From Longimicrobiales bacterium (GTDB lineage Bacteria > Gemmatimonadota > Gemmatimonadetes > Longimicrobiales > RSA9): DNA of 64,000 nucleotides. Below the pieces are notes generated by a model, which saw only the letters and a list, made by a program, of their open reading frames with translations, was not told the DNA's origin and searched no databases. The DNA is taken from the NCBI GenBank assembly GCA_035512635.1, contig DATKDR010000098.1:26273-90272 (forward strand), in the 5' to 3' direction. Made by a program: the position numbers and the translations under genes. Every line of letters begins with the position of its first letter. The stretch's first letter is position 1. Shown one piece after another: positions 6,180 through 42,493 of this stretch.

Positions 6180-6228
6180 GAGCCCAGAGCCTAGAGCCCA
6201 GAGCCTAGAGCCTAGAGCCTAGAGCCCC
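6180..6228. repeat. heptamer tandem array H1 (GAGCCYA x7)
   Basis: Read unit by unit: gagccca gagccta gagccca gagccta gagccta gagccta gagcccc. It ends just upstream of an AAGAGGA Shine-Dalgarno-like motif preceding the ATG at 6240. Confidence 0.9.
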
Positions 6229-6239
6229 AAAAGAGGACC

Positions 6240-6824
6240 ATGGACTACCCACTGACACTGACGTTCAAGATCATCGCGATCTCGCCGCAGATGGCGGTGA
6301 CCGACGCGGCCGACAAGCTCGTCTTCTACGTGCGGCAGAAGGCGTTCAAGCTGCGCGAGCAGGTGACCGTGTTCGGCGACCGGGAGCAGACGCGGCCCGT
6401 CGCCTACATCAAGGCGGATCGCATCCTGGACATCTCGGCGACGTACGGCTTCGAGGACCCGCAGGGCCGCCGCTTCGGCGCCGTTAAGCGCGCGGGCATG
6501 AAGTCGATCTGGCGCGCTTACTACGAGGTGCTGCGCGGCGACGAGACGCTGTTCACGATCCGCGAGGACAACGCGCTGGTGAAGTTCCTGGACGGGGTGC
6601 TGTACCAGATCCCGATCCTGGGCGCGCTGTCCGGCTACGTGTTCCACCCCTCGTACACGGTCGCGCGCCCCGACGGCACGCACGTGCTCGCCATCCGCAA
6701 GCAGCCGGCGATGTGGGAGGGGCGCTTCACCATCGAGAAGGCGTCCGAGCTGACGCCGGACGAGGAGGCACTCGCCAGTCTCAGCATCCTGATGATGGTC
6801 ATGCTGGAGCGAGCGCGCGGGTAG
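6240..6824 (+). CDS. conserved hypothetical, LURP-one-related / tubby C-terminal-like (tentative)
   Basis: 194 aa with good G/C third-position bias. MDYPLTLTFKI..YVRQKAFKLREQVTVF..IKADRILDISATY resembles the bacterial LURP1/DUF567-type pattern. AAGAGGA RBS. Confidence 0.55.
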   Translation: MDYPLTLTFKIIAISPQMAVTDAADKLVFYVRQKAFKLREQVTVFGDREQTRPVAYIKADRILDISATYGFEDPQGRRFGAVKRAGMKSIWRAYYEVLRGDETLFTIREDNALVKFLDGVLYQIPILGALSGYVFHPSYTVARPDGTHVLAIRKQPAMWEGRFTIEKASELTPDEEALASLSILMMVMLERARG

Positions 6825-6826
6825 GG

Positions 6827-6868
6827 CCGGATATCTCGTATCCGGTATCCGGTATCCGGTATACGGTT
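6827..6868. repeat. heptamer tandem array H2 (TCCGGTA core)
   Basis: ccggata tctcgta tccggta tccggta tccggta tacggtt, starting 3 nt after the stop codon at 6822-6824. Confidence 0.85.
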
Positions 6869-9928: not shown

Positions 9929-10425
9929 TGACACGAGCACGACGGACACGGGTCGCGACGGTGGCCGTGGCCCTGGTCGCGCTCGGCGCAGGCTGCGCAC
10001 GCGCGGAGGGCCGCGGCCGCGATACGATCGAGCGCCTGGCCTGGCTCGCCGGCTGCTGGGAGCGGCGCGCGGGCGAGCGCCTGCTCGAGGAGCAGTGGAT
10101 GAGGCCGCGTGGGGGCACCATGCTCGGCATGAGCCGCCTGGTCCGCGGCAGCGCGACGCTGTCGCACGAGTCGATGCGCATCGAGGAGCGGGACGGTGGT
10201 CTCGTCTTCGCGGCGCAGCCCTCGGGGCAGGCGCCGGCCGAATTCGCCTCGCAGGCGATCGCGGACTCCGTCGTCGTCTTCGAGAATGCGACACACGACT
10301 TCCCGCAGCGCGTCATCTATCGACACGCGGCGGGCGATTCCCTGCACGCGCGCATCGAGGGCGAGCGCGGCGGCGAGCCCTCGGGCATCGACTTCAGAAT
10401 GGCACGGGTGGCATGCACGGACTGA
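9928..10425 (+). CDS. lipoprotein, DUF6265-like
   Basis: The ATG at 9928 overlaps the preceding stop (TGATG). Lipobox ALGAGC. Motifs WLAGCWERR and FENATHDFPQRVIY. Confidence 0.6.
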   Translation: MTRARRTRVATVAVALVALGAGCARAEGRGRDTIERLAWLAGCWERRAGERLLEEQWMRPRGGTMLGMSRLVRGSATLSHESMRIEERDGGLVFAAQPSGQAPAEFASQAIADSVVVFENATHDFPQRVIYRHAAGDSLHARIEGERGGEPSGIDFRMARVACTD

Positions 10426-10967
10426 GACCAAGCCACGTGGCGGCGGGGCTGGCGCTGACGCTCCTGTTCGCGGCCTGCGACGGCGGCGCGGACGAATCCC
10501 GCGAATCGGCGCGCAGACTGGCGCCGGAATCGGCGGGGCTCGAAGGCGGCCCGGCCACGCGGGACGGCGCGCCTTCGACGGGGGCCGGCTGTGCGCTGCT
10601 CACGGAGGAGCAGGTGGAGGAGGCGCTCGGCTTCGGCGTCGTCATGAACGACAACACGACCGGCAATTGCCTGGTCACGCCGGACGACGGCTCACCGTCC
10701 GGGCCCGCCGTCGACTTCAGGATCGAGGACCGGGCGGCGGCCTACGACTACTTCGCCGCCCAGCCGGATGCCGAGCCCATCCCCGATCTCGGCGACCGCG
10801 CCGTCTGGTCGACCCTCAACGAGATGACCGGCAACCTCGCGGTGGTGCTCGGTGAGCGCGCCGTGGTGGTCGCGATCGCACGGGCGGACGGCCTCGATGC
10901 CCGCGCACGCCGGCAGGCGGAAGCCCTCGCCCGCGCCATCGTCCGGACGCTAGGCAGTAGTCGGTAG
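10413..10967 (+). CDS. hypothetical lipoprotein
   Basis: The ATG at 10413 gives MHGLRPSHVAAGLALTLLFAAC (lipobox). The stop codon lies inside heptamer array H3. Confidence 0.6.
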   Translation: MHGLRPSHVAAGLALTLLFAACDGGADESRESARRLAPESAGLEGGPATRDGAPSTGAGCALLTEEQVEEALGFGVVMNDNTTGNCLVTPDDGSPSGPAVDFRIEDRAAAYDYFAAQPDAEPIPDLGDRAVWSTLNEMTGNLAVVLGERAVVVAIARADGLDARARRQAEALARAIVRTLGSSR

Positions 10968-11032
10968 TCGGTAGTCGGTCGACCGGATACCGGATACCGG
11001 ATACCGAATACCGGATACCGGCTTCGGCTAGC
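10956..11032. repeat. heptamer array H3, two-arm (GGTAGTC)n-GGTCGACC-(CGGATAC)n
   Basis: 11 contiguous 7-nt units in one register fill the whole gap between convergent stops (10965-10967 and 11028-11030). A GGTCGACC palindrome sits at the centre. Confidence 0.9.
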
Positions 11033-11579
11033 GGCCGAACAGCAGCGTGCCCGCACCGAGCCCTCGCGCCTCACCCCCCGTGCTGATCTTGCCGCCGGAG
11101 CCGCCGTGCGGATCGAAGGACCAGATGTCCGGGAACTCGACGAGCAGCAGACCCCTTTCCGGATCGAACTCGCCCACCAGCTCCGTGCGCTCGGCGCCCG
11201 TTTCGCTGCCGCCCGCCCATGACACCTCCCACTGGAGGATGGTCATGATCACCAGCGTGCTGGTGTTGTCGAACTCGCCCCGCCAGAAGACGTCGAAGAC
11301 GTTCCGGAACGGGTCGGTGCGACAGGCCTGATCGGTGCCGGTGGCGACCCGCTGCGTGAAGTGGTGGTGGATCTCGAAGTCGCCGTTCGACTCCATGGCC
11401 AGCACGCTGTCGACACAGTAGTCGGCATCCAGCTCGGCCGGCGGAACGCCGCCCAGCGCCAGGAGCTGGTAGTCGCCCGCCAGGTCCGCGGCGGTGACGT
11501 CGACCAGCTCCGCGGCGTCGTTCGTCTCGCATGCGGCGAGCGCGAAGGCGCCCGCGATGATCGCTTTCTGCCAGCGCAC
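11028..11579 (-). CDS. small lipoprotein with Gly-rich C-terminal tail (module gene C2)
   Basis: MRWQKAIIAGAFALAAC lipobox, DLAGDYQLL, and tail GGSGGKISTGGEARGLGAGTLLFGR. Paralog of 16840-17373. 8 nt after the B2 stop. Confidence 0.75.
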   Translation of the reverse strand: MRWQKAIIAGAFALAACETNDAAELVDVTAADLAGDYQLLALGGVPPAELDADYCVDSVLAMESNGDFEIHHHFTQRVATGTDQACRTDPFRNVFDVFWRGEFDNTSTLVIMTILQWEVSWAGGSETGAERTELVGEFDPERGLLLVEFPDIWSFDPHGGSGGKISTGGEARGLGAGTLLFGR

Positions 11580-20498: not shown

Positions 20499-20631
20499 CG
20501 GATCCCGGATCCGGGATTCGGCTCTCGGTAGATCGTATCCGGTAGCCGGTATGCAGTATCCGGTAGACGGTATTCGGTATCCGGTAGCCGGTATTCGGTA
20601 TCCGGAATCCCGAATCCGGAATCCGGAATCC
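20499..20631. repeat. heptamer array H4 (19 units: CGGATCC / GGTATCC / GGTAGCC / GGAATCC variants)
   Basis: Parsed in a single 7-nt register from 20499 to 20631. It ends 4 nt from the EF-G-paralog stop codon (20636-20638). Confidence 0.9.
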
Positions 20632-20635
20632 GCCC

Positions 20636-22738
20636 CTACGCCGAGATCTCGACCTCTTCCCGGTCCGCGGACGCGGCCACCTTCGCCGCGACGGCAGCCG
20701 GCGCCTCCTCGTAGCCGTGCAGCTTGCGGTGGTGCGCGGCGCGGCCCTGCGTGAGCGAGCGGAGCGTGGTGGCGTACTTGTACAGCTCCGCCTCGGGCAC
20801 GAGCGCGCGGATCGTCGTCTTGCGGCCTTCGGCGTCCAGACCGAGGATGCGGCCGCGGCGCTGGTTCAGATCGCCCATCACGTCGCCCAGGTACTCCTCG
20901 GGCGTGACGACCTCGACGTCCATCACCGGCTCGAGCAGGACCGGCCCCGCCTCGGCCGCGACCTTCTTGAACCCGATCGAAGCGGCGATCTGGAAGGCGA
21001 TGTCGCTCGAGTCGACGGTGTGGTAACTGCCGTCGTAGACCTCGCACTCGAAGTCGACCATGGGGAAGCCGGCGACGATGCCCTTCTGCGCCGCCTGCTG
21101 CACCCCCTTGTCGACGGACGGGATGAACTTGTTGGGGATGACGCCGCCGGCGATGGCGTCGGTGAACTCGTAGCCGGCGCCGCGCGGGCGCGGCTTGAGG
21201 CGGATCCAGCAGTCGCCGAACTGGCCGCGGCCGCCCGTCTGCTTCTTGTAGCGGCCCTGCCCTTCCGCGGTCTTCCTGATCGTCTCGCGGTAGCGGATGC
21301 GCGGCTGCTCGGTCTCGACGCCCACACCGAACTTCCGCTTGAGCCGCTCGAGCTGCACGTCGAGGTGCAGCTCGCCGAGACCGCGCACGATGGTCTGCCG
21401 CAGCTCGCCGTCGTAGGCGAAGTGGAAGGTCGGATCCTCCTCGTGCAGCTTGTGCAGCCCGGTGCCGATCTTGTCCTCGTCGCTGCGGCTCGCGCCGTGG
21501 ATCGCGAGCGAGATGTCGGGATCCGGGAAATCGATGCCCTCGAGGATGAGCGGCTTCGCCTTCGCGCAGATGGTGTCGTTCGTGTGCGTGTCGCGCAGCT
21601 TCGCGACGACGCCGATGTCGCCCGCGTGCAACGCTTCGACCTCGACACGCTCCTTGCCGAGCGGCACCGACAGGTGAGCCAGCTTCTCGATGATGTCGTG
21701 CTTCGGGTTCGCCACTTCCTCGCCGTTCTTCACTCTGCCGGAGAAGACGCGGAAGTACGACAGCTCACCCACGTGCGGCTCGGTCGCCGTCTTGAACACG
21801 AGCGCCGCGAACGGCTCGCCGTCCGCACACGCCAGCTCCAGGCGCTCACCGGTGCCCGCGCGCTGCGCGATCTGGCGCGGCATCTCGTCCGGATGCGGTA
21901 CCAGCTCCACGAGCTTGGACAGCAGCGCGCGCGTGCCCCAGGTCTTCTCCGGCGCGCCGCAGAACAGCGGGAACAGCTCGCCGCGCTTCATGCCCGCCTT
22001 CATCGCGGCGATCGCCTCCTCGCGCGTGATCTCCTGCCCCTCGAGGTAGTGCTCGAGCAGCGTATCGTCCGTCGTCGCAATCGACTCGAGCAGCTCCTGC
22101 CGCCATTTCTCGAGCTGCGGACGATACTCCTCGGGGACCTCCTCTTCACGGTACTCGCCCGCGGTGTTCGGCTCGTACAGGTGCGCGCGGCCGCTGAACA
22201 GGTTGATGATGCCGTGAAAGCCGTCGCCCGAACCGACCGGGATCTCGACCGGAATCACTTTCTCGGTCAGGTGGGTCTTGATCTCCTCGTAGACCTTCTC
22301 GAAATCGGCGTGCTCGCGGTCCATGCCCGAAACGAAAAAGAGCCTGGGGACTGCGCGGTTCGAGCAGTACTCCCAGACTCTTTCAGTGCCGACCTCGACG
22401 CCCGTCGTGGCGCCGAGGACGAGGACAGCCCCGTCGGCGACCCTCGTCGCGGACAGCACCTCCCCCGCGAAATCCTGGTACCCGGGCGTGTCGAGCAGGT
22501 TGATCTTCGTCTCCTTCCACTCCGCGTATGCGGGCGAGGCCTGGAGCGAGATGCCGTGGGCGAGCTCCTCCGCGGTGTGCATCGTCAGCGTGTTGCCTTC
22601 CTTGACGCTGCCGTGGCGCCGCGCGGTGCCCGAAACGAAGCAGAGCGCCTCGACCAGACTCGTCTTGCCGGAGCCGCCGTGCCCCAGCACGACGACGTTG
22701 CGGATGCGCTCGGTGGGATAGACGCGGGCAGATGACAT
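20636..22738 (-). CDS. elongation factor G-like translational GTPase (paralog)
   Basis: ATG at 22738 after GGGAGAG. G-domain motifs VVLGHGGSGKTS, DTPGYQDF and a five-domain EF-G-like length (700 aa). Not in a str-operon context. Confidence 0.85.
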   Translation of the reverse strand: MSSARVYPTERIRNVVVLGHGGSGKTSLVEALCFVSGTARRHGSVKEGNTLTMHTAEELAHGISLQASPAYAEWKETKINLLDTPGYQDFAGEVLSATRVADGAVLVLGATTGVEVGTERVWEYCSNRAVPRLFFVSGMDREHADFEKVYEEIKTHLTEKVIPVEIPVGSGDGFHGIINLFSGRAHLYEPNTAGEYREEEVPEEYRPQLEKWRQELLESIATTDDTLLEHYLEGQEITREEAIAAMKAGMKRGELFPLFCGAPEKTWGTRALLSKLVELVPHPDEMPRQIAQRAGTGERLELACADGEPFAALVFKTATEPHVGELSYFRVFSGRVKNGEEVANPKHDIIEKLAHLSVPLGKERVEVEALHAGDIGVVAKLRDTHTNDTICAKAKPLILEGIDFPDPDISLAIHGASRSDEDKIGTGLHKLHEEDPTFHFAYDGELRQTIVRGLGELHLDVQLERLKRKFGVGVETEQPRIRYRETIRKTAEGQGRYKKQTGGRGQFGDCWIRLKPRPRGAGYEFTDAIAGGVIPNKFIPSVDKGVQQAAQKGIVAGFPMVDFECEVYDGSYHTVDSSDIAFQIAASIGFKKVAAEAGPVLLEPVMDVEVVTPEEYLGDVMGDLNQRRGRILGLDAEGRKTTIRALVPEAELYKYATTLRSLTQGRAAHHRKLHGYEEAPAAVAAKVAASADREEVEISA

Positions 22739-22936
22739 CGCTTCTCTCCCTGCGGGGTGCGTGTGGGGTGCGGGGATCCGCATCGTAAACCACCGCACTA
22801 TCGGGGGTCAAGGCGGCGCAAAACCCCTGTGCGAGTGCGTGTGCATGTGCCTCCTCCGGAGTCTCTTTTAGTGCCGGACGAAGCCGACTCGCGCGTCGGT
22901 CGAACGATCGACGCGGATTGCCAGCTCATCGCATGC

Positions 22937-24600: not shown

Positions 24601-26369
<1,769 letters not shown>

Positions 26370-30536: not shown

Positions 30537-30834
30537 GCGTCCTGCGCGAGTTGGGTGCTGCGGTGACCGCTGAGAATAGCCTTTCGGTCCTGCTCAGCCA
30601 ACGGGCGGCCGTTCACGGTCCGCCGGGAATGCCGCCATCGCCTGGGACCGACTTCGGGCGCCCCAAGAACGCCTGCGAGAAGCCGCGCGCGCGATGGGCT
30701 TCGCGACACTGGAGCTGGAGTAGGCAGCGGCGCACCGCGAGCGGTCGGTCGGCATTCCTGAACGTGAACGTTCGACGTGAACGTGAAGGCAGTTGAAGTG
30801 CCCGTTCCTGGCACATCCCCGGACACATCCTCTC

Positions 30835-30849
30835 TGGCACGTCCTCTGC
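30835..30849 (+). promoter_or_regulatory. candidate sigma54 (-24/-12) promoter
   Basis: TGGCACGTCCTCTGC has GG and GC at the canonical spacing (consensus TGGCACG-N4-TTGC), ~45 nt upstream of the ATG at 30894. Confidence 0.3.
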
Positions 30850-30893
30850 CCATCGCCGTTCGCCCAGCGATTCACGCCGACCACACGGACTCG

Positions 30894-31712
30894 ATGCGCC
30901 ATCTCATCGCTCCAGCACTGCTGCTCCTCGGCGCCTGCGCCTCCGGCGGTCCGCCGGCCGGTCCCGCCGCTCCCGGCGTCCCGGAAGGCCCCGCCGTCGA
31001 GTACCGCGGCGTGCCCGGCTTCGATACGCGCGATTATCCCGGCGACGGCGTGATGGCGCGCTGGCGCGAGCACTCGCCCTATCGCTGGGTCGGCTATTAC
31101 CTGCCCGCGCCGTGCTATACGGGCACCTCGTGGGTCGGCAAGCGGGGCGTGCTGGAGGACCTCGAGTGGGGCCTCGCGGTGCTGTACGTCGGCGAGCAGG
31201 ACTGGCGCGCGATGGGGACGCCACCGGAGATGACGGATTCCGCGGCCGCCGCGAACCCGCGCTGCGCGAGCGCGAACCTGACCCGCGGCAACGGACAGGC
31301 GCACGCGCGGGACGCCGCCGCTCAGGCGGAAGCCGAGGGTTTCCCGCCCGGCACGGTGATTTATCTCGATGTCGAGCGAGTCGACGAGGTGTCTCCGGAG
31401 CTCGAGGCGTACGTCGGTGGCTGGATCGACGGGCTGCTCGAGGACGCGCGCTACCTGGCCGGCCTGTACGCGCACCAGCGCAATGCCACCGCGCTGATGG
31501 ACGTCGCGCGCGCCGCCTACCAGGAGCGTGCGCGCCTCGGCGGCCCGCGCCTCTGGGTCGCGTCGTCCGAGGGCTTCGACGTCACCGCGCATCCTTCCGA
31601 GTCCGGCTTCACGGGCGCCACCATCTGGCAGGGCGCCTTCGACCGCCGGGAGCGGTGGGGCGACGTCACGCTCAGGATCGACGTGAACGTCGCCGAGGCG
31701 GGGCTGTACTAG
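30894..31712 (+). CDS. DUF1906 (Rv2525c-like glycoside-hydrolase-like) lipoprotein
   Basis: The ATG at 30894 gives MRHLIAPALLLLGAC. GFDTRDYPGDGVMARWREHSPYRWVGYYL and IYLDVE resemble DUF1906. Confidence 0.6.
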   Translation: MRHLIAPALLLLGACASGGPPAGPAAPGVPEGPAVEYRGVPGFDTRDYPGDGVMARWREHSPYRWVGYYLPAPCYTGTSWVGKRGVLEDLEWGLAVLYVGEQDWRAMGTPPEMTDSAAAANPRCASANLTRGNGQAHARDAAAQAEAEGFPPGTVIYLDVERVDEVSPELEAYVGGWIDGLLEDARYLAGLYAHQRNATALMDVARAAYQERARLGGPRLWVASSEGFDVTAHPSESGFTGATIWQGAFDRRERWGDVTLRIDVNVAEAGLY

Positions 31713-31800
31713 GCTCTAGGCTCTAGGCTCTAGGCTCTAGGCGTCGTTGTGGCATTTGCTAGAGCCTAATGCCTAGCGCCTAGTGCCCAGGTGCCTAGTG
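31710..31800. repeat. heptamer array H5: (TAGGCTC)x5, spacer, (CTAGNGC)x6 inverted arm
   Basis: The stop codon at 31710-31712 is the first unit. taggctctag (31731-31740) is the exact complement of ctagagccta (31759-31768). Confidence 0.9.
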
Positions 31801-31865: not shown

Positions 31866-34679
31866 GTGCTGAACTTCGATGAGCTGGACGGCGGCGCCAT
31901 CAACGCCGCCTACATCCAGGAGCTGTACGAGCTGTACCGCTCTGATCCCGCCTCGGTCGACGAGGCGTGGCGCCGCATCTTCGCCGCCGAGGACGCCGCC
32001 GACGGGGTGGCCGCACCGGACGGTGACCGACCGGGTGCCCCAGCCGGCCCACCGGATACCGGCTACCAGCTAGCGGGTACCGCGTATCCCGATCGCCGCG
32101 CCGACGACGCCTCGATCAAGGCCGCCAAGTGCGCCGCGGAGCTGGTCGAGGCCTACCGGCTGAACGGTCATTACGCGGCCGACCTCGACCCGCTCGGCAA
32201 TCCGCGTCCCGGCCATCCCACGCTGGAGCCGAAGTTCCACGGCCTGACCGACGAGGACATGGCCTCGGGTCCGTCGGCCGACCTGTGCGGCGAGACGATC
32301 GCGTGGCTGCGCCAGGTCTACACCGGCACGATCGGCTACGAGTTCGAGCACCTCGAGTATCCCGAGCGCTCGGAGTGGATCCGCGATCAGATCGAGAATG
32401 GCCGGCACCTGCGTGAGCTGTCCGCGGACGAGAAGCGGCGCCTGCTGCGCCGGCTGACGGAGGTCGAGGGACTCGAGCAGTTCCTGCACAAGTCGTATCT
32501 CGGCGCGAAACGCTTCTCCGTCGAGGGCAACGACATGCTGGTGCCGATGCTGGACCTCGCCATCGAGCGGGCCGCGCAGGCGGGCGCGCGCGAGGTCGTG
32601 CTCGGCATGGCGCACCGCGGACGGTTGAACGTGCTCGCGCACGTGCTCGGCCGGCCCTACCCGATGCTGATCGGCGAATTCGAGGGGCGGCATGCGTTCT
32701 CCGGCGGCACCGGCGACGTGAAGTACCACCTGGGCGCCGAGGGCACGTACGCGACTGCGTCCGGCGATCCCCTCACGGTGACGCTCGCGCCCAATCCGAG
32801 CCATCTCGAGTTCGTCGGCGCCGTCGTCGTCGGCATCGCGCGCGCGAAGCAGTCGGACCGCACGCAGCCGGAGCTGCGCCGCGACAATGAGCTGGTGCTG
32901 CCAGTGCTGATCCACGGCGACGCCGCGTTCATCGGCCAAGGGGTCGTACCCGAGACGTTCAATCTGGCGGAGCTGAGGGGCTACACGACGGGCGGCTCGC
33001 TGCACGTCATCGTCAACAACCAGATCGGCTTCACCACGCTGCCGTCGGACGCGCGCTCGACGCATTACTCGAGCGACCTCGCGCGCGGCTTCGACGTGCC
33101 GATCTTCCACGTGAATGCCGACGATCCCGAAGCGTGCCTTGCCGTCGTCCGACTCGCGCTCGCGTACCGCGAGAAGTTCCACGGCGACGTGGTCATCGAC
33201 CTGATCGGCTACCGCCGGTACGGGCACAACGAGGGCGACGAGCCGGCGTACACGCAGCCGCGCATGTACGAGGCGGTCGCCGAGCATACGCGCGTGCGCG
33301 AGCTGTGGATCGAAAAGCTCGTCGCCGACGGCGTCGCGTCGAAGGAGGACGCCCAGGCCGAGTGGGACTCGGTCTATCAGCGCCTGATCGACGCGCAGGA
33401 CGAGGTGCAGCAGGAAATCCAGGCGGAGTCCGACGAGGAGAAGGCGCCGCACACGATGCCGCCGGTGACCGAAGCGACGCCGCGTCCACCCGTGGACAGC
33501 AGCGTCGAGCCGGAGCTGCTGCGCGACCTCGACCGGCAGGTGCACAGCTGGCCGGACGATTTCGAGCCGAACCCGAAGCTGTCACGCCAGCTGCGGAAGC
33601 GCGCCGAGGCGGTGCCGGAAGGACGGCCGCTCGACTGGGCCCACGCCGAAGCCCTCGCCTTCGCGTCCCTCCTCGCGGAGGGCACGCCGATCCGGCTCAC
33701 CGGTCAGGACACGGAGCGCGGCACGTTCTCGCAGCGTCACCTCGTGCTGCATGACACGGAGAGCGGCGAGAGCTGGACGCCGCTCGCGCACCTGAAACAG
33801 GCGGGCGCCTCGTTCGAGATCTACAACAGTCCGCTCTCCGAGATGGCCTGTGTCGGCTTCGAGTACGGGTATACGACGGCCGCTCCCGAGACGCTCGTCC
33901 TGTGGGAAGCGCAGTTCGGCGACTTCGTGAACGGCGCGCAGGTCATCATCGATCAGTTCATGAGCGCCGGCCGCGCGAAATGGGGCCAGGACTCGAGCCT
34001 CGTGCTGTTGCTGCCGCACGGCTTCGAGGGCCAGGGACCGGAGCACTCCAGCGCGCGCATCGAGCGCTTCCTCCAGCTCTGCGCCGAGGACAACTTCCGC
34101 GTCGCCGACTGCACCACGCCGGCGCAGTACTTCCACCTGCTGCGCCGCCAGGCCAAGCTCGCGGACCGGCGCCCGCTCATCGTCTTCACGCCCAAGAGCC
34201 TGCTGCGCAATCCCCGCGCGACCTCCTCGTTCGACGAGCTGGCGAGCGGCACGTTCCACCCGGTGCTGCCGGACGCGAGCATGGCCGACAGCCGCGGTCG
34301 CGTCACGCGACTGGTCCTGTGCACCGGCAAGGTCTACTACGACCTGAGCGCCTCGGACGCGCGCGAGCGGAACGGGCACGTCGCCGTCGCCCGCGTCGAG
34401 CAGCTCTATCCCTTCCCCGCCCAGGAGATCGCCGCCCTGGTCGCGGACCACCCCGCGCTCGAGGAAGTCGTCTGGGCGCAGGAGGAGCCGCGCAACATGG
34501 GCGCGTGGCCCTTCGCCGAGCGCCGCCTCCGTGACGCCATCGGCGAGCTCCCGCTCCGCTACGTCGGCCGCCCCGAGCGGGCCAGCCCGGCCGAGGGCTT
34601 CGGCGACGTGCACGAAGCCGAGCAGAAGCGTATCGTTGAGGAGGCGCTCGCAGCCGGACGAAGCGTCGGTAGACCGTAG
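31866..34679 (+). CDS. sucA: 2-oxoglutarate dehydrogenase E1 component
   Basis: INAAYIQELYELY N-terminus, GMAHRGRLNVL, and full-length E1o similarity. Start uncertain: GTG at 31866 is chosen because the track ORF start (31791) lies inside array H5. Confidence 0.9.
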   Translation: MLNFDELDGGAINAAYIQELYELYRSDPASVDEAWRRIFAAEDAADGVAAPDGDRPGAPAGPPDTGYQLAGTAYPDRRADDASIKAAKCAAELVEAYRLNGHYAADLDPLGNPRPGHPTLEPKFHGLTDEDMASGPSADLCGETIAWLRQVYTGTIGYEFEHLEYPERSEWIRDQIENGRHLRELSADEKRRLLRRLTEVEGLEQFLHKSYLGAKRFSVEGNDMLVPMLDLAIERAAQAGAREVVLGMAHRGRLNVLAHVLGRPYPMLIGEFEGRHAFSGGTGDVKYHLGAEGTYATASGDPLTVTLAPNPSHLEFVGAVVVGIARAKQSDRTQPELRRDNELVLPVLIHGDAAFIGQGVVPETFNLAELRGYTTGGSLHVIVNNQIGFTTLPSDARSTHYSSDLARGFDVPIFHVNADDPEACLAVVRLALAYREKFHGDVVIDLIGYRRYGHNEGDEPAYTQPRMYEAVAEHTRVRELWIEKLVADGVASKEDAQAEWDSVYQRLIDAQDEVQQEIQAESDEEKAPHTMPPVTEATPRPPVDSSVEPELLRDLDRQVHSWPDDFEPNPKLSRQLRKRAEAVPEGRPLDWAHAEALAFASLLAEGTPIRLTGQDTERGTFSQRHLVLHDTESGESWTPLAHLKQAGASFEIYNSPLSEMACVGFEYGYTTAAPETLVLWEAQFGDFVNGAQVIIDQFMSAGRAKWGQDSSLVLLLPHGFEGQGPEHSSARIERFLQLCAEDNFRVADCTTPAQYFHLLRRQAKLADRRPLIVFTPKSLLRNPRATSSFDELASGTFHPVLPDASMADSRGRVTRLVLCTGKVYYDLSASDARERNGHVAVARVEQLYPFPAQEIAALVADHPALEEVVWAQEEPRNMGAWPFAERRLRDAIGELPLRYVGRPERASPAEGFGDVHEAEQKRIVEEALAAGRSVGRP

Positions 34680-34750
34680 GCCGTGAATCCATATACGGTA
34701 TACGGTAGACGGTATACGATATACCGATTACCGATTACCGATTACCGATC
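34667..34750. repeat. heptamer array H6 (ACGGTAT / ACCGATT units, 12 units)
   Basis: Single register from 34667 to 34750. It covers the sucA stop (34677-34679) and ends 4 nt before the AGGGAG RBS of the next gene. Confidence 0.9.
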
Positions 34751-35070: not shown

Positions 35071-35107
35071 CGTATACCGTATACTGCCTACCGTATACGG
35101 ATACGGT
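35071..35107. repeat. heptamer array H7 (CGTATAC units)
   Basis: cgtatac cgtatac tgcctac cgtatac ggatacg. Contains the palindrome ccgtatacgg. Confidence 0.75.
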
Positions 35108-37681: not shown

Positions 37682-38251
37682 GTGCAGCCCGTAGTCGTCG
37701 TCACCTATCCACACGCGCTCGATCTCAAGGTCGAGCGGCTGGAGCACACGAGCCTGCCGGACCAGTCCACGGGCCTCGCGTACTATTACCGTGGTGGGCT
37801 GATCGCGCGCGGTGTCGTGAGCGATGAGGCGGTCGAGTCGATCCAGTCGCTGGTGAACGATCCGGTACACCTCGCGCTCGCCGCGCAGGAGGACGACGAC
37901 GGCAACATCGACGGCCGGCTGTGTCTGGTCCTGCCGGTGGAGCTCGGCAAGGAGCTCATGAAGGACGACGACGCGGAGCCCGAGGAGGCGTGGAAGTCGA
38001 GCGTGCCCGCGCCGCCCGCCGAGATCGACAGCTACGGCTCGCAGAAGCGCGACACCGCCGATGAGCCGGAGGAGGGCGAGCAGCCGCACATCGCGCTGCT
38101 GCCCATCGGCAACATCGTGCGCAGCAGCGAAGCCCGTAACCATCCCGACGACGTCTCCGCCGACGCGCGCGAGATGCTCGTCAACCTGCTCGCCGGACAG
38201 GGGCAGGATTCCGTGCGCAAGGCGATCGACGACCTGCTCGACTCGATCTGA
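37682..38251 (+). CDS. hypothetical acidic protein
   Basis: GTG at 37682 after GGAGGA. 189 aa, Asp/Glu-rich, with coding-like third-position bias. No family recognised. Confidence 0.55.
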   Translation: MQPVVVVTYPHALDLKVERLEHTSLPDQSTGLAYYYRGGLIARGVVSDEAVESIQSLVNDPVHLALAAQEDDDGNIDGRLCLVLPVELGKELMKDDDAEPEEAWKSSVPAPPAEIDSYGSQKRDTADEPEEGEQPHIALLPIGNIVRSSEARNHPDDVSADAREMLVNLLAGQGQDSVRKAIDDLLDSI

Positions 38252-38253
38252 AT

Positions 38254-38386
<133 letters not shown>

Positions 38387-41834: not shown

Positions 41835-42446
41835 TTACCGCGCGCTCACCGGGATGGCGACGCGCGTGTTCTCCCATTCCAGGATCAGCGACGCGCCCGC
41901 GTCCGCTGGCTCGGAGCGGATGGTGAACGTCTCCACGTGCTCGTCGATGCCCGTCGCCGGCACCATGCCGCGACCGACCTCCTGCGCGCGCACGTCCGCC
42001 GTGTAGCGGCTCTCGTGGCCCCACTGCGACGTCGACCGGTTCACGATCACGACCCACTGCTCCAGACCCGGCATCGTGTACAGCGAATATGATCCGGGGT
42101 CGAGGTCCATGCCCGCGATCGTCGCGGCGAAGGGCAGGTGCAGCGTGGTCGGCTCGTTCGCGCCCGTGCGCCACAGCTGGCCGAACGGCACCGCCTCGCC
42201 ACCGATCATCGTGCGACCCCGGGCCGACGGGCGGCCGTAGCAGATCTTGGCGGTCTGTCCGTCGACCGTGATCAGCGTCGAATCGTAGGGACTCGCGCGA
42301 CCTTCCAGCGCCATGTTCTCCGTCATCGGCGCGCACGCCATCGACTGCGCCTCCGCCGGAGCCGGCGCGGTCGCACAGGCAATCATCGTGAACCAGACCG
42401 CCATCCCACCAATCACCATCCGCATCGCATTCTCCCTGTGCCGCAT
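41835..42446 (-). CDS. DUF2911 family protein
   Basis: ICYGRPSARGRTMIGGEAVPFGQLWRTGANEPTTL is the DUF2911 hallmark. The ATG at 42422 (MRMVIGG) is an alternative start. Confidence 0.75.
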   Translation of the reverse strand: MRHRENAMRMVIGGMAVWFTMIACATAPAPAEAQSMACAPMTENMALEGRASPYDSTLITVDGQTAKICYGRPSARGRTMIGGEAVPFGQLWRTGANEPTTLHLPFAATIAGMDLDPGSYSLYTMPGLEQWVVIVNRSTSQWGHESRYTADVRAQEVGRGMVPATGIDEHVETFTIRSEPADAGASLILEWENTRVAIPVSAR

Positions 42447-42460
42447 GTCATCCCCGGACC

Positions 42461-42493
42461 CACCACCTCACCTCACCTCACCTCACCTCACCT
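42461..42493. repeat. pentamer array P2 (ACCTC/CCTCA x6)
   Basis: caccacctcacctcacctcacctcacctcacct directly abuts the trpS stop codon (42494-42496). Confidence 0.85.

Follow-up and report, generated by a model that had tools for sequence, protein, structure and literature searches.

Two imperfect hairpins in a Longimicrobiales genome as probable members of a population of intergenic heptanucleotide repeats

We analyzed a 64-kb chromosomal segment (hereafter the window) of a metagenome-assembled genome (MAG) of a Longimicrobiales bacterium (Gemmatimonadota). The segment has 70% G+C, carries carB, sucA and EF-G, and contains two two-armed repeat elements, H3 (10956-11032) and H8 (38254-38386). 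An earlier reading of the same DNA (the original prediction) had taken them for hairpins acting in the plus-strand transcript, possibly as terminators. We think it somewhat more probable than not that they are local members of a lineage-specific set of intergenic heptanucleotide arrays, simple sequence repeats with the unit GGTA[T/G][C/A/T]C, which would have grown by slippage and survived only where they do no harm, the hairpin being a by-product. H3 and H8 are neither a sequence-specific plus-strand device nor canonical terminators. Their closest known kind is that of the intergenic heptameric repeats of Xanthomonas, a kind already described, of which they lack only the potential to form G-quadruplexes.

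Two hairpins made of converging arrays

Reading of the sequence and folding with RNAfold both bear out the original prediction that the two elements are built alike and are able to fold into long hairpins. Their parts, read directly from the sequence, are as follows.

10956-11032: H3 as a whole, two arms, (GGTAGTC)n and (GGATACC)n, on either side of a short degenerate centre.
10956-10976, plus strand: left arm of H3, with units AGTAGTC (10956-62), GGTAGTC (10963-69) and GGTAGTC (10970-76).
10977-10984, no strand: centre of H3, GGTCGACC, a palindrome that is also a degenerate left-arm unit (GGTCGAC+C).
10985-11021, minus strand: right arm of H3, with three GGATACC, one GAATACC and one GGATACC (10985-11019), then GG.
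38254-38386: H8 as a whole, a (GGTAGTC)n arm, a linker and a (GGATACC)n arm.
38256-38290, plus strand: left arm of H8, with units GGTAGCC, AGTAGTC, GGTAGTC, GGTAGCC and GGTAGTC.
38291-38301, no strand: linker of H8, GGTAACGCGCC, 11 nt made of a degenerate unit and 4 nt, the loop of the hairpin.
38302-38386, minus strand: right arm of H8, with 12 GGATACC-type units (GGTATCC on the minus strand) at 38302-38385.

On the minus strand the right arm of H3 reads (GGTATCC)2 GGTATTC (GGTATCC)2, and that of H8 is likewise a run of GGTATCC. Hence, the two arms of each element are arrays of one generic heptamer, GGTAnnC, one on each strand, converging on the centre. The arms are unequal, with 3 against 5 units in H3 and 5 against 12 in H8, where only the first 5-6 units of the right arm have a partner in the left one; the inequality indicates that the arms grow independently. 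The sequence variants within the units are transitions inside CCGG. The right arm of H8 includes GAATACT (AGTATTC on the minus strand) at 38323-29 and 38365-71. A rare variant, CGAATAC/AATACTG, had been proposed as common to both elements. The first form does occur in H3, where it is followed by CGG, whereas AATACTG is confined to H8, and the variant is not rare, since GGTATTC is also found in the array at 20.5 kb and in other phyla. Given that H3 and H8 have no common flanks, terminal repeats or target duplications, we ruled out a miniature inverted-repeat transposable element or other mobile element.

Genes were called in the window by open reading frame (ORF) length and G+C content at third codon positions, without a trained gene caller. 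Both elements adjoin the stop codons of plus-strand genes, as originally stated. The TAG stop (10965-67) of the gene at 10413-10967 sits within the second unit of H3, whose left arm has TAG in all three frames and encodes the C-terminal residues of that gene together with its stop. The TGA stop (38249-38251) of the gene at 37682-38251 lies 2 nt before H8 and 4 nt before its left-arm units. The minus-strand gene at 11028-11579 has its TAG stop at 11028-11030, with the right arm of H3 lying 8 nt beyond it, and the 60-nt gap between these convergent genes (10968-11027) is spanned entirely by H3. Beyond H8, 14 nt separate the element from the TTG start (38401) of a gene of the UDG family.

A dense population of arrays in the window

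We surveyed the window with a pattern census and with Tandem Repeats Finder. Two consecutive units, GGTANNCGGTANNC (GGTANNC twice), occur 26 times against 0.04 expected, and three-unit matches 15 times against 0.00 expected; Tandem Repeats Finder reported 13 period-7 arrays in the 64 kb. In total, the window holds 11 arrays with units of 5-7 nt, of which 10 are intergenic, and eight of these 10 lie at most 5 nt from the stop codon of the upstream gene. None of the 11 lies between divergent genes. Hence, H3 and H8 are two elements among a dense local population, not a family of two. A logo of 65 units shows G (83%), G (92%), T (97%), A (95%), [T/G], [C/A/T] and C (89%), so that positions 5 and 6 are those that vary. 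Arrays of the GGTAnnC type were found at 6827, H3, 20499, 32051, 34685, 35071 and H8. Besides H3 and H8, the arrays are these.

6827-6867, plus strand: GGTAnnC family, (GTATCCG)4.3, 2 nt after the TAG stop of the gene at 6240-6824.
20499-20632, plus strand: GGTAnnC family, outer arms (GGATCC/GGATTC)n and (GGAATCC)n flanking 10 mixed units GGTA[T/G][C/A/T]C.
32051-32082: GGTAnnC family, inside the sucA coding sequence, degenerate GnnTACC-type, in the stop-free orientation.
34685-34749, no strand: GGTAnnC family, two-armed, (GGTATAC/GGTAGAC)n on the plus strand and then (GGTAATC)3 on the minus strand, starting 5 nt after the sucA stop.
35071-35098, minus strand: GGTAnnC family, degenerate, (GGTATAC/GGTAGGC)n between a small gene and LemA.
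31709-31800, no strand: sister element with another unit, (CTAGGCT)4.9 and then inverted (GCCTAGN)n.
26214-26368, no strand: sister element with a pentameric unit, two-armed, (AGGTG)n and then (CCTCA)n, between two minus-strand genes.
42464-42493: pentamer array, (CACCT)6, 17 nt upstream of the start at 42446.
6180-6227: single-armed array, (GAGCCYA)6.7, 12 nt upstream of the start at 6240.

EF-G (20636-22798) is encoded on the minus strand, with the array at 20499-20632 following its TAG stop after 3 nt, so that the EF-G transcript reads the stop-free strand of the array. At 31709-31800, the TAG stop of the gene at 30777-31712 falls within the first unit.

Resemblance to known heptameric repeats

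According to Mrazek et al. 2007, as cited in two later papers (PMC4679880, PMC4692102), heptanucleotides are the most abundant class of long simple sequence repeats in many bacteria. Rehm et al. 2015 (PMC4692102) described about 186 GGGAATC arrays per genome in Xanthomonas, with heterogeneous units (GGGANTN)n. These arrays are intergenic in 89-93% of cases, with mean distances of 28 nt to the upstream ORF and 160 nt to the downstream one; they are under-represented between divergent ORFs and form 70-75 convergent pairs. They vary extensively among sister species and no function was found for them; the same paper reports an intergenic heptamer in Nostoc, GGGGAYT. The arrays of the window resemble both in their period of 7 at multiple loci, in heterogeneous units with fixed and free positions, and in being about 90% intergenic. 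They likewise stand much nearer to the upstream than to the downstream ORF, seldom lie between divergent ORFs, occur as convergent pairs that can form stem-loops (H3, H8 and the 34.7-kb element), and vary greatly among close relatives. They differ in their unit, GGTAnnC, in their host phylum, and in the many stop-bearing units that overlap the gene's own stop. They also differ in that a G-quadruplex takes runs of at least three G and the units of the window have only GG. With just two G's per unit no G-quadruplex can form, and the elements belong to the general kind rather than to the G-quadruplex subtype of Xanthomonas and Nostoc. The Xanthomonas-type layout is thus found in Gemmatimonadota too, in arrays whose unit is incapable of forming G-quadruplexes, which argues that the layout is independent of such structures.

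The arrays also resemble the short tandemly repeated repetitive sequences of cyanobacteria and the TAACTGA repeats of Beggiatoaceae, cyanobacteria and Bacteroidetes, which are multi-site intergenic tandem heptamers, with mixed heptamers, a patchy phylogeny and a stop-bearing forward strand. However, most TAACTGA sets immediately precede start codons, and nearly all are direct repeats, with one inverted set in 170 (MacGregor 2015, PMC4679880), whereas the arrays of the window hug stop codons and are often two-armed. Repeats serving phase variation (contingency loci) were considered and rejected, as the arrays follow the stops of housekeeping genes (EF-G, sucA, the neighbourhood of UDG) instead of standing in promoter spacers or 5' coding regions.

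Recent gain of H3 and H8

Syntenic loci of relatives (L165-L172 and L119) were retrieved through neighbouring proteins, at protein identities of 59-90%. At the site of H8, the spacer between p189 and UDG has no array in L165 (90% identity in p189), L166 (84%) or L167 (81%), and carries (GTCGTCA)5 in L168 (80%) and (CGAATCC)7 in L119. At the junction of H3, the two genes overlap in L170 and are separated by 9 nt in L171 and 51 nt in L172, with an array in none of them. The window protein that ends at H3 finishes with ...ARAIVRTLGSSR (...LGSSR) before its stop, and those of the relatives with ...ARLIIRRR or ...AHEIVERL. Given these different C-termini, the repeat now encodes the last residues (Ser-Ser-Arg) and the stop of the plus-strand gene. 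Since syntenic relatives lack H3 and H8, we conclude that both are recent gains in a sub-lineage with a fast turnover of arrays. The syntenic comparison thus dates the two elements and shows a repeat taking over the stop codon of a gene. In about 250 kb of more distant relatives (UDG identity of 63% or less) no strong array of this kind was found. The window, L167 and L168 all carry arrays at one and the same site, the 3' end of sucA, with units and copy numbers that differ. The H3 junction of L171 (1825-1850) is ancestral-like; its 183-aa gene has its stop in CGGTAGCCG, a lone GGTAGCC unit that could be the seed of an array.

Folding of the two strands

We compared plus- and minus-strand RNA with RNAfold, using both the matched arms and the whole elements. 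Each GGTAGTC/GGATACC heptad makes five Watson-Crick pairs, one U-G pair and one G-A mismatch in plus-strand RNA, and in minus-strand RNA an A-C mismatch replaces the G-U pair; this pattern is that of the original prediction. Fold z-scores of H3 and H8 range from -2.5 to -6.1. The energies of the two elements, and the strand biases of the other two-armed elements of the window, are the following.

H3, matched arms: plus -20.6, minus -17.9 kcal/mol; plus ahead by 2.7.
H8, matched arms: plus -52.6, minus -47.5 kcal/mol; plus ahead by 5.1.
H3, whole element as reported: plus -36.1, minus -32.8 kcal/mol.
H8, whole element as reported: plus -63.4, minus -70.7 kcal/mol; minus favoured.
34.7-kb element: strands equal.
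31.7-kb element: plus by 1.6.
26.2-kb element: minus by 10.3.
20.5-kb element: plus by 3.6.

The strand comparison thus comes out in favour of the plus strand for matched arms (by 3-5 kcal/mol) and of the minus strand for the whole of H8, where the sign is reversed because surplus (GGUAUCC)n units pair with themselves through G-U. The other two-armed elements have no consistent bias. The strand asymmetry of the hairpins is small and inconsistent, and relatives lack the element at either site; the idea that the asymmetry marks a plus-strand device does not hold. Rfam gave no match at the gathering score in the window, and scans by E-value returned only hits, at E of 0.04 or more, to models of miRNA-precursor hairpins, which we took as chance.

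Proposed origin and orientation of the arrays

We propose that replication slippage lengthens and shortens the arrays in steps of 7 nt, and that each arm would have amplified a founder unit, GGTAGTC on one strand and GGTATCC on the other. Amplification of one founder per arm would give the same five Watson-Crick pairs, G-U pair and G-A mismatch in every heptad, and so this repeated pattern need not be designed. The inverted partner arm might arise through fold-back or template switching, for which there is little support, or through independent growth from the end of the opposite gene. The convergent junction between the 79-aa gene and Aldedh in L168 fits independent growth from each gene end, its arms standing 98 nt apart, one at each stop.

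Arrays may persist only where they are harmless, that is, right after stop codons, never between divergent genes, and with the stop-bearing strand toward the incoming gene. A stop-bearing array could creep into the last codons of a gene and still end the protein, and in H3 the array has overwritten the last codons of the plus-strand gene while supplying its stop. Arrays in any other orientation would lengthen the protein on entering a gene end, and this would account for the position of the arrays near stops as well as for their bias in orientation. Since the arrays would be transcribed as 3' untranslated or intercistronic RNA, each strand is able to form a long, imperfect hairpin, whose effect on mRNA 3' ends is plausibly at most a generic one, similar to that of repetitive extragenic palindromic (REP) sequences, for example a barrier to 3' exonucleases or a pause site.

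To study orientation more widely, we scanned one genome per species for (GGTANNC)4 and obtained at least 118 loci (L001-L118). They come from Gemmatimonadota, Chloroflexota, Acidobacteriota, Bacteroidota, cyanobacteria, Planctomycetota, several proteobacterial classes, Streptomyces and one archaeon. As the loci were chosen by motif, they inform on orientation and not on the frequency of the motif, and the orientation and stop-content figures that follow are those among the matches listed. Single GGTAA/GGTAG arrays beside one long ORF stop are placed such that the gene reads into the stop-bearing strand in 37 cases against 5; the same test gives 2 against 7 for GGTAC/GGTAT arrays. The preferred orientation relative to the upstream gene that the original prediction implied is therefore present for GGTAG/GGTAA arms and absent for the GGTATCC type. 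Unrelated heptamers in the same loci face the gene with their stops in 26 cases against 5. Units containing a stop make up 70% of the arrays, where 39% would be expected from composition, and two-armed elements, those of L165-L172 and the window included, have stops in 2.1 of 3 frames when read inward against 0.4 when read outward. Stop-free units show no clear orientation bias overall; among them, the 6:1 ratio of skewed arrays and the 2:7 ratio of TAC/TAT units rest on small numbers and differing definitions of an array. G-richness and stop content are confounded as determinants of orientation and are not separable here. The stop-facing, G-rich orientation seen across phyla is a hypothesis, testable genome-wide, on what filters or selects heptamer repeats. 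Such orientation rules make a long-standing question on these bacterial repeats more testable, and the main interest of the finding lies there. In this sample, two loci from unrelated phyla come close to the design of H8: L048 (5681-5767, Pirellulales) and L032 (4647-4771, Anaerolineae) have a (GGTAGTC)n left arm and an inverted (GGCTACC/CTGGCTA)n arm.

Several observations weigh against arrays that simply grew by slippage and were tolerated. Neighbouring inverted arrays are arranged as (GGTAnnC)n followed by (GnnTACC)n in 12 cases and in the reverse order in 2. Of the 37 inverted two-arm elements of any unit in the window, L001-L118 and L165-L172, 32 have a G-rich 5' arm and 3 a C-rich one, a property that is identical on both strands. 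Slippage alone does not predict this G-first polarity, whereas selection on the hairpin could. We tried a fold-back (snap-back) origin of the polarity and did not retain it, the G-rich single strands being just 1-2 kcal/mol more structured than their complements. Complementarity between arms is far commoner than independent arrays would give, and the same unit families at many loci of one genome suggest dispersal or selection on the motif. Within H8, A38263-U38329 is a compensated pair (G-C to A-U), and one other change turns a wobble into a Watson-Crick pair. The strong polarity and the compensated pair are the main findings not expected under a purely neutral account.

Alternative explanations

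REP hairpins stabilise mRNA in E. coli. The arrays of the window could have been selected in a similar way, with the hairpin shielding the upstream mRNA from 3'-to-5' exonucleases and setting differential expression within operons; any complementary repeat would serve, and the sequence could turn over. In accordance with this, the arrays stand after stops and inside strings of co-directional genes, the arms are often complementary and their arrangement polar, H8 has its compensated pair, and arrays with differing units recur at the 3' end of sucA in three genomes. REP sequences and bacterial interspersed mosaic elements (BIMEs) of enterobacteria and pseudomonads are also extragenic, co-transcribed with the upstream gene, hairpin-forming and often in inverted pairs. 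They too stand after stops and between convergent genes with species-specific sequences, and their GTAG is contained in GGTAGTC. Yet orthologous sites in close relatives lack the element, the arms differ greatly in length, numerous arrays have a single arm and little structure, and compensated pairs can also result from template switching. The elements are not REPs themselves: REPs are single imperfect palindromes of 20-40 nt and fixed length, beginning with GTAG, mobilised by REP-associated tyrosine transposases and present in hundreds of near-identical copies, whereas the elements of the window are tandem heptamers of variable length, with differing units and, in H3 and H8, unshared flanks. 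Such a transposase was not seen in the window, in which the Pfam profile scan covered 10 proteins. We regard a selected role of this kind as unlikely.

We give the same low credence to a broader proposal, in which two-armed arrays would be selected, self-renewing insulators of gene ends across phyla. A G-rich, stop-bearing arm would always come first on both strands. The arrays would halt ribosomes coming from both sides in three frames and then form a hairpin able to block, with no need of a U-tract, exonucleases or RNA polymerase; H3 and H8 would represent such insulators in Longimicrobiales.

The original prediction, in which the hairpin alone halts RNA polymerase at the end of the plus-strand transcript, and in both directions at H3, seems to us quite unlikely. 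Stable hairpins do follow the stop codons directly, H3 does fill the convergent gap as claimed, and the matched arms are more stable on the plus strand. In L165, the spacer equivalent to that of H8 holds an ordinary GC hairpin followed by CCCCUUUUCG, so the array may have replaced a terminator. Intrinsic terminators, like H3 and H8, have a GC-containing hairpin directly after the gene, but theirs is a GC-rich hairpin with a U-tract within 0-2 nt. H3 and H8 have neither a U-tract nor an A-tract (their tails are GGCUUCGGCUAG and CGCCAGCCGUCC), their stems of 20-40 bp have one mismatch every 7 nt, and H3/H8-type elements directly precede downstream start codons. The bidirectional terminator proposed for H3 therefore finds no support. 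The terminator scan calls neither element, under a rule that also misses a visible terminator in L168 whose stem-loop falls outside it and which we folded separately. The organism does use U-tract terminators, as two canonical ones in the window indicate.

3956-3916, minus strand: canonical intrinsic terminator, 18-bp stem then T-tract.
16787-16754, minus strand: canonical intrinsic terminator, 14-bp stem then T-tract.

In L168, a perfect two-arm element, (GGTAGAC)5/(GTCTACG)n, is followed in tandem by a canonical terminator, with a hairpin of -25.4 kcal/mol and UUUUUCGUUU (UUUUU); this and the junction between the 79-aa gene and Aldedh are at L168 2632-2790 and 7581-7736. The whole of H8 is, as seen above, more stable on the minus strand. 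The next start codon lies 14-26 nt beyond H8, the 34.7-kb element (26 nt) and the 42.5-kb array, which leaves no room for a promoter, so that efficient termination at these arrays would silence the downstream genes. At the site of H3, the genes of relatives overlap or stand 9 nt apart, and hence no terminator is needed there. For annotation, this means that such elements are not to be scored as terminators or structured RNAs.

It is improbable, in our view, that heptamers bearing TAG, TAA or TGA were selected as a wall of stops in three frames, which would end frameshifted or read-through ribosomes arriving from both sides and guard downstream structures. The inward stops of two-armed elements, the 37:5 and 26:5 ratios and the excess of stop-containing units all point in that direction, and H3, sucA and the gene at 30777-31712 use a TAG within the array. 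However, the GGTATCC arms of H3 and H8 are stop-free in both orientations, and the GGGAATC of Xanthomonas is stop-free and has the same convergent layout (PMC4692102). Survivorship accounts equally well for the bias, as only stop-bearing arrays encroach harmlessly, and the excess of TAG stops among array-adjacent genes of the window is not significant (6/9 against 10/30).

Even less can be said for an array of binding sites in a 7-nt register, whether for an RNA-binding protein of the HutP type, a cold-shock domain or a DNA-binding protein, and we hold it highly improbable. GGTA..C is conserved with positions 5 and 6 variable, and the favoured units are particular to each genome. HutP binds (UAGNNNN)3; its site, located in a leader ahead of a terminator, comprises two sets of three UAG spaced by 4 nt. 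The left arm of H3, UAGUCGG UAGUCGG UAG, resembles this pattern, with one (UAGNNNN)3 set, and we identified no second set, leader context or HutP. CspB is cited as binding with one protein per heptamer (in PMC4679880). Against such an array, no candidate protein was identified, the units vary among close relatives and loci (GGTAnnC, CTAGGCT, AGGTG, GGAATCC), the GGTATCC arms have no UAG, and the sites are not conserved in relatives. We also considered that (CGGAUAC)n, with GGA every 7 nt, may act as a sponge for CsrA, and dropped it because GGA is paired in the stem and the units of other genomes lack it.

Finally, an assembly artefact can be given next to no credence. In its favour, the genome was assembled from a metagenome, and contigs of L169 (968-997) and L166 (1-30) terminate in arrays. 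Since short-read assemblies break at such arrays, the copy numbers given by MAGs may be unreliable and those of arrays of 86-98 nt perhaps imprecise. However, the same kind of array occurs in independent assemblies and in complete isolate genomes (Pseudoalteromonas phenolica, Streptomyces sp. NBC_00466 and Zymobacter), and the flanks are syntenic and in frame.

Other observations on arrays and neighbouring genes

Around sucA, the units GGTAGAC CGTAGGC overlap its last codons (34668-34690). Its product ends in ..GRP with a TAG derived from the repeat, where relatives end in ..FGG or ..FAG with TGA. The array within the gene (32051-32082) encodes ..PDTGYQLAGTAYPD.. in a variable linker and is missing from the L167 orthologue. 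The longest sucA ORF begins at 31791, within the 31.7-kb element, and alignment with L167 suggests that the GTG at 31866 is the real start. The array at 6180-6227 just precedes a Shine-Dalgarno-like AAGAGGA; read on the opposite strand, its unit is the CTAGGCT of the 31.7-kb element. On minus-strand mRNAs, the pentamer arrays at 42464-42493 and 26214-26368 appear as (AGGUG)n, a Shine-Dalgarno-like repeat with complementarity to the CACCU at the 3' end of 16S rRNA.

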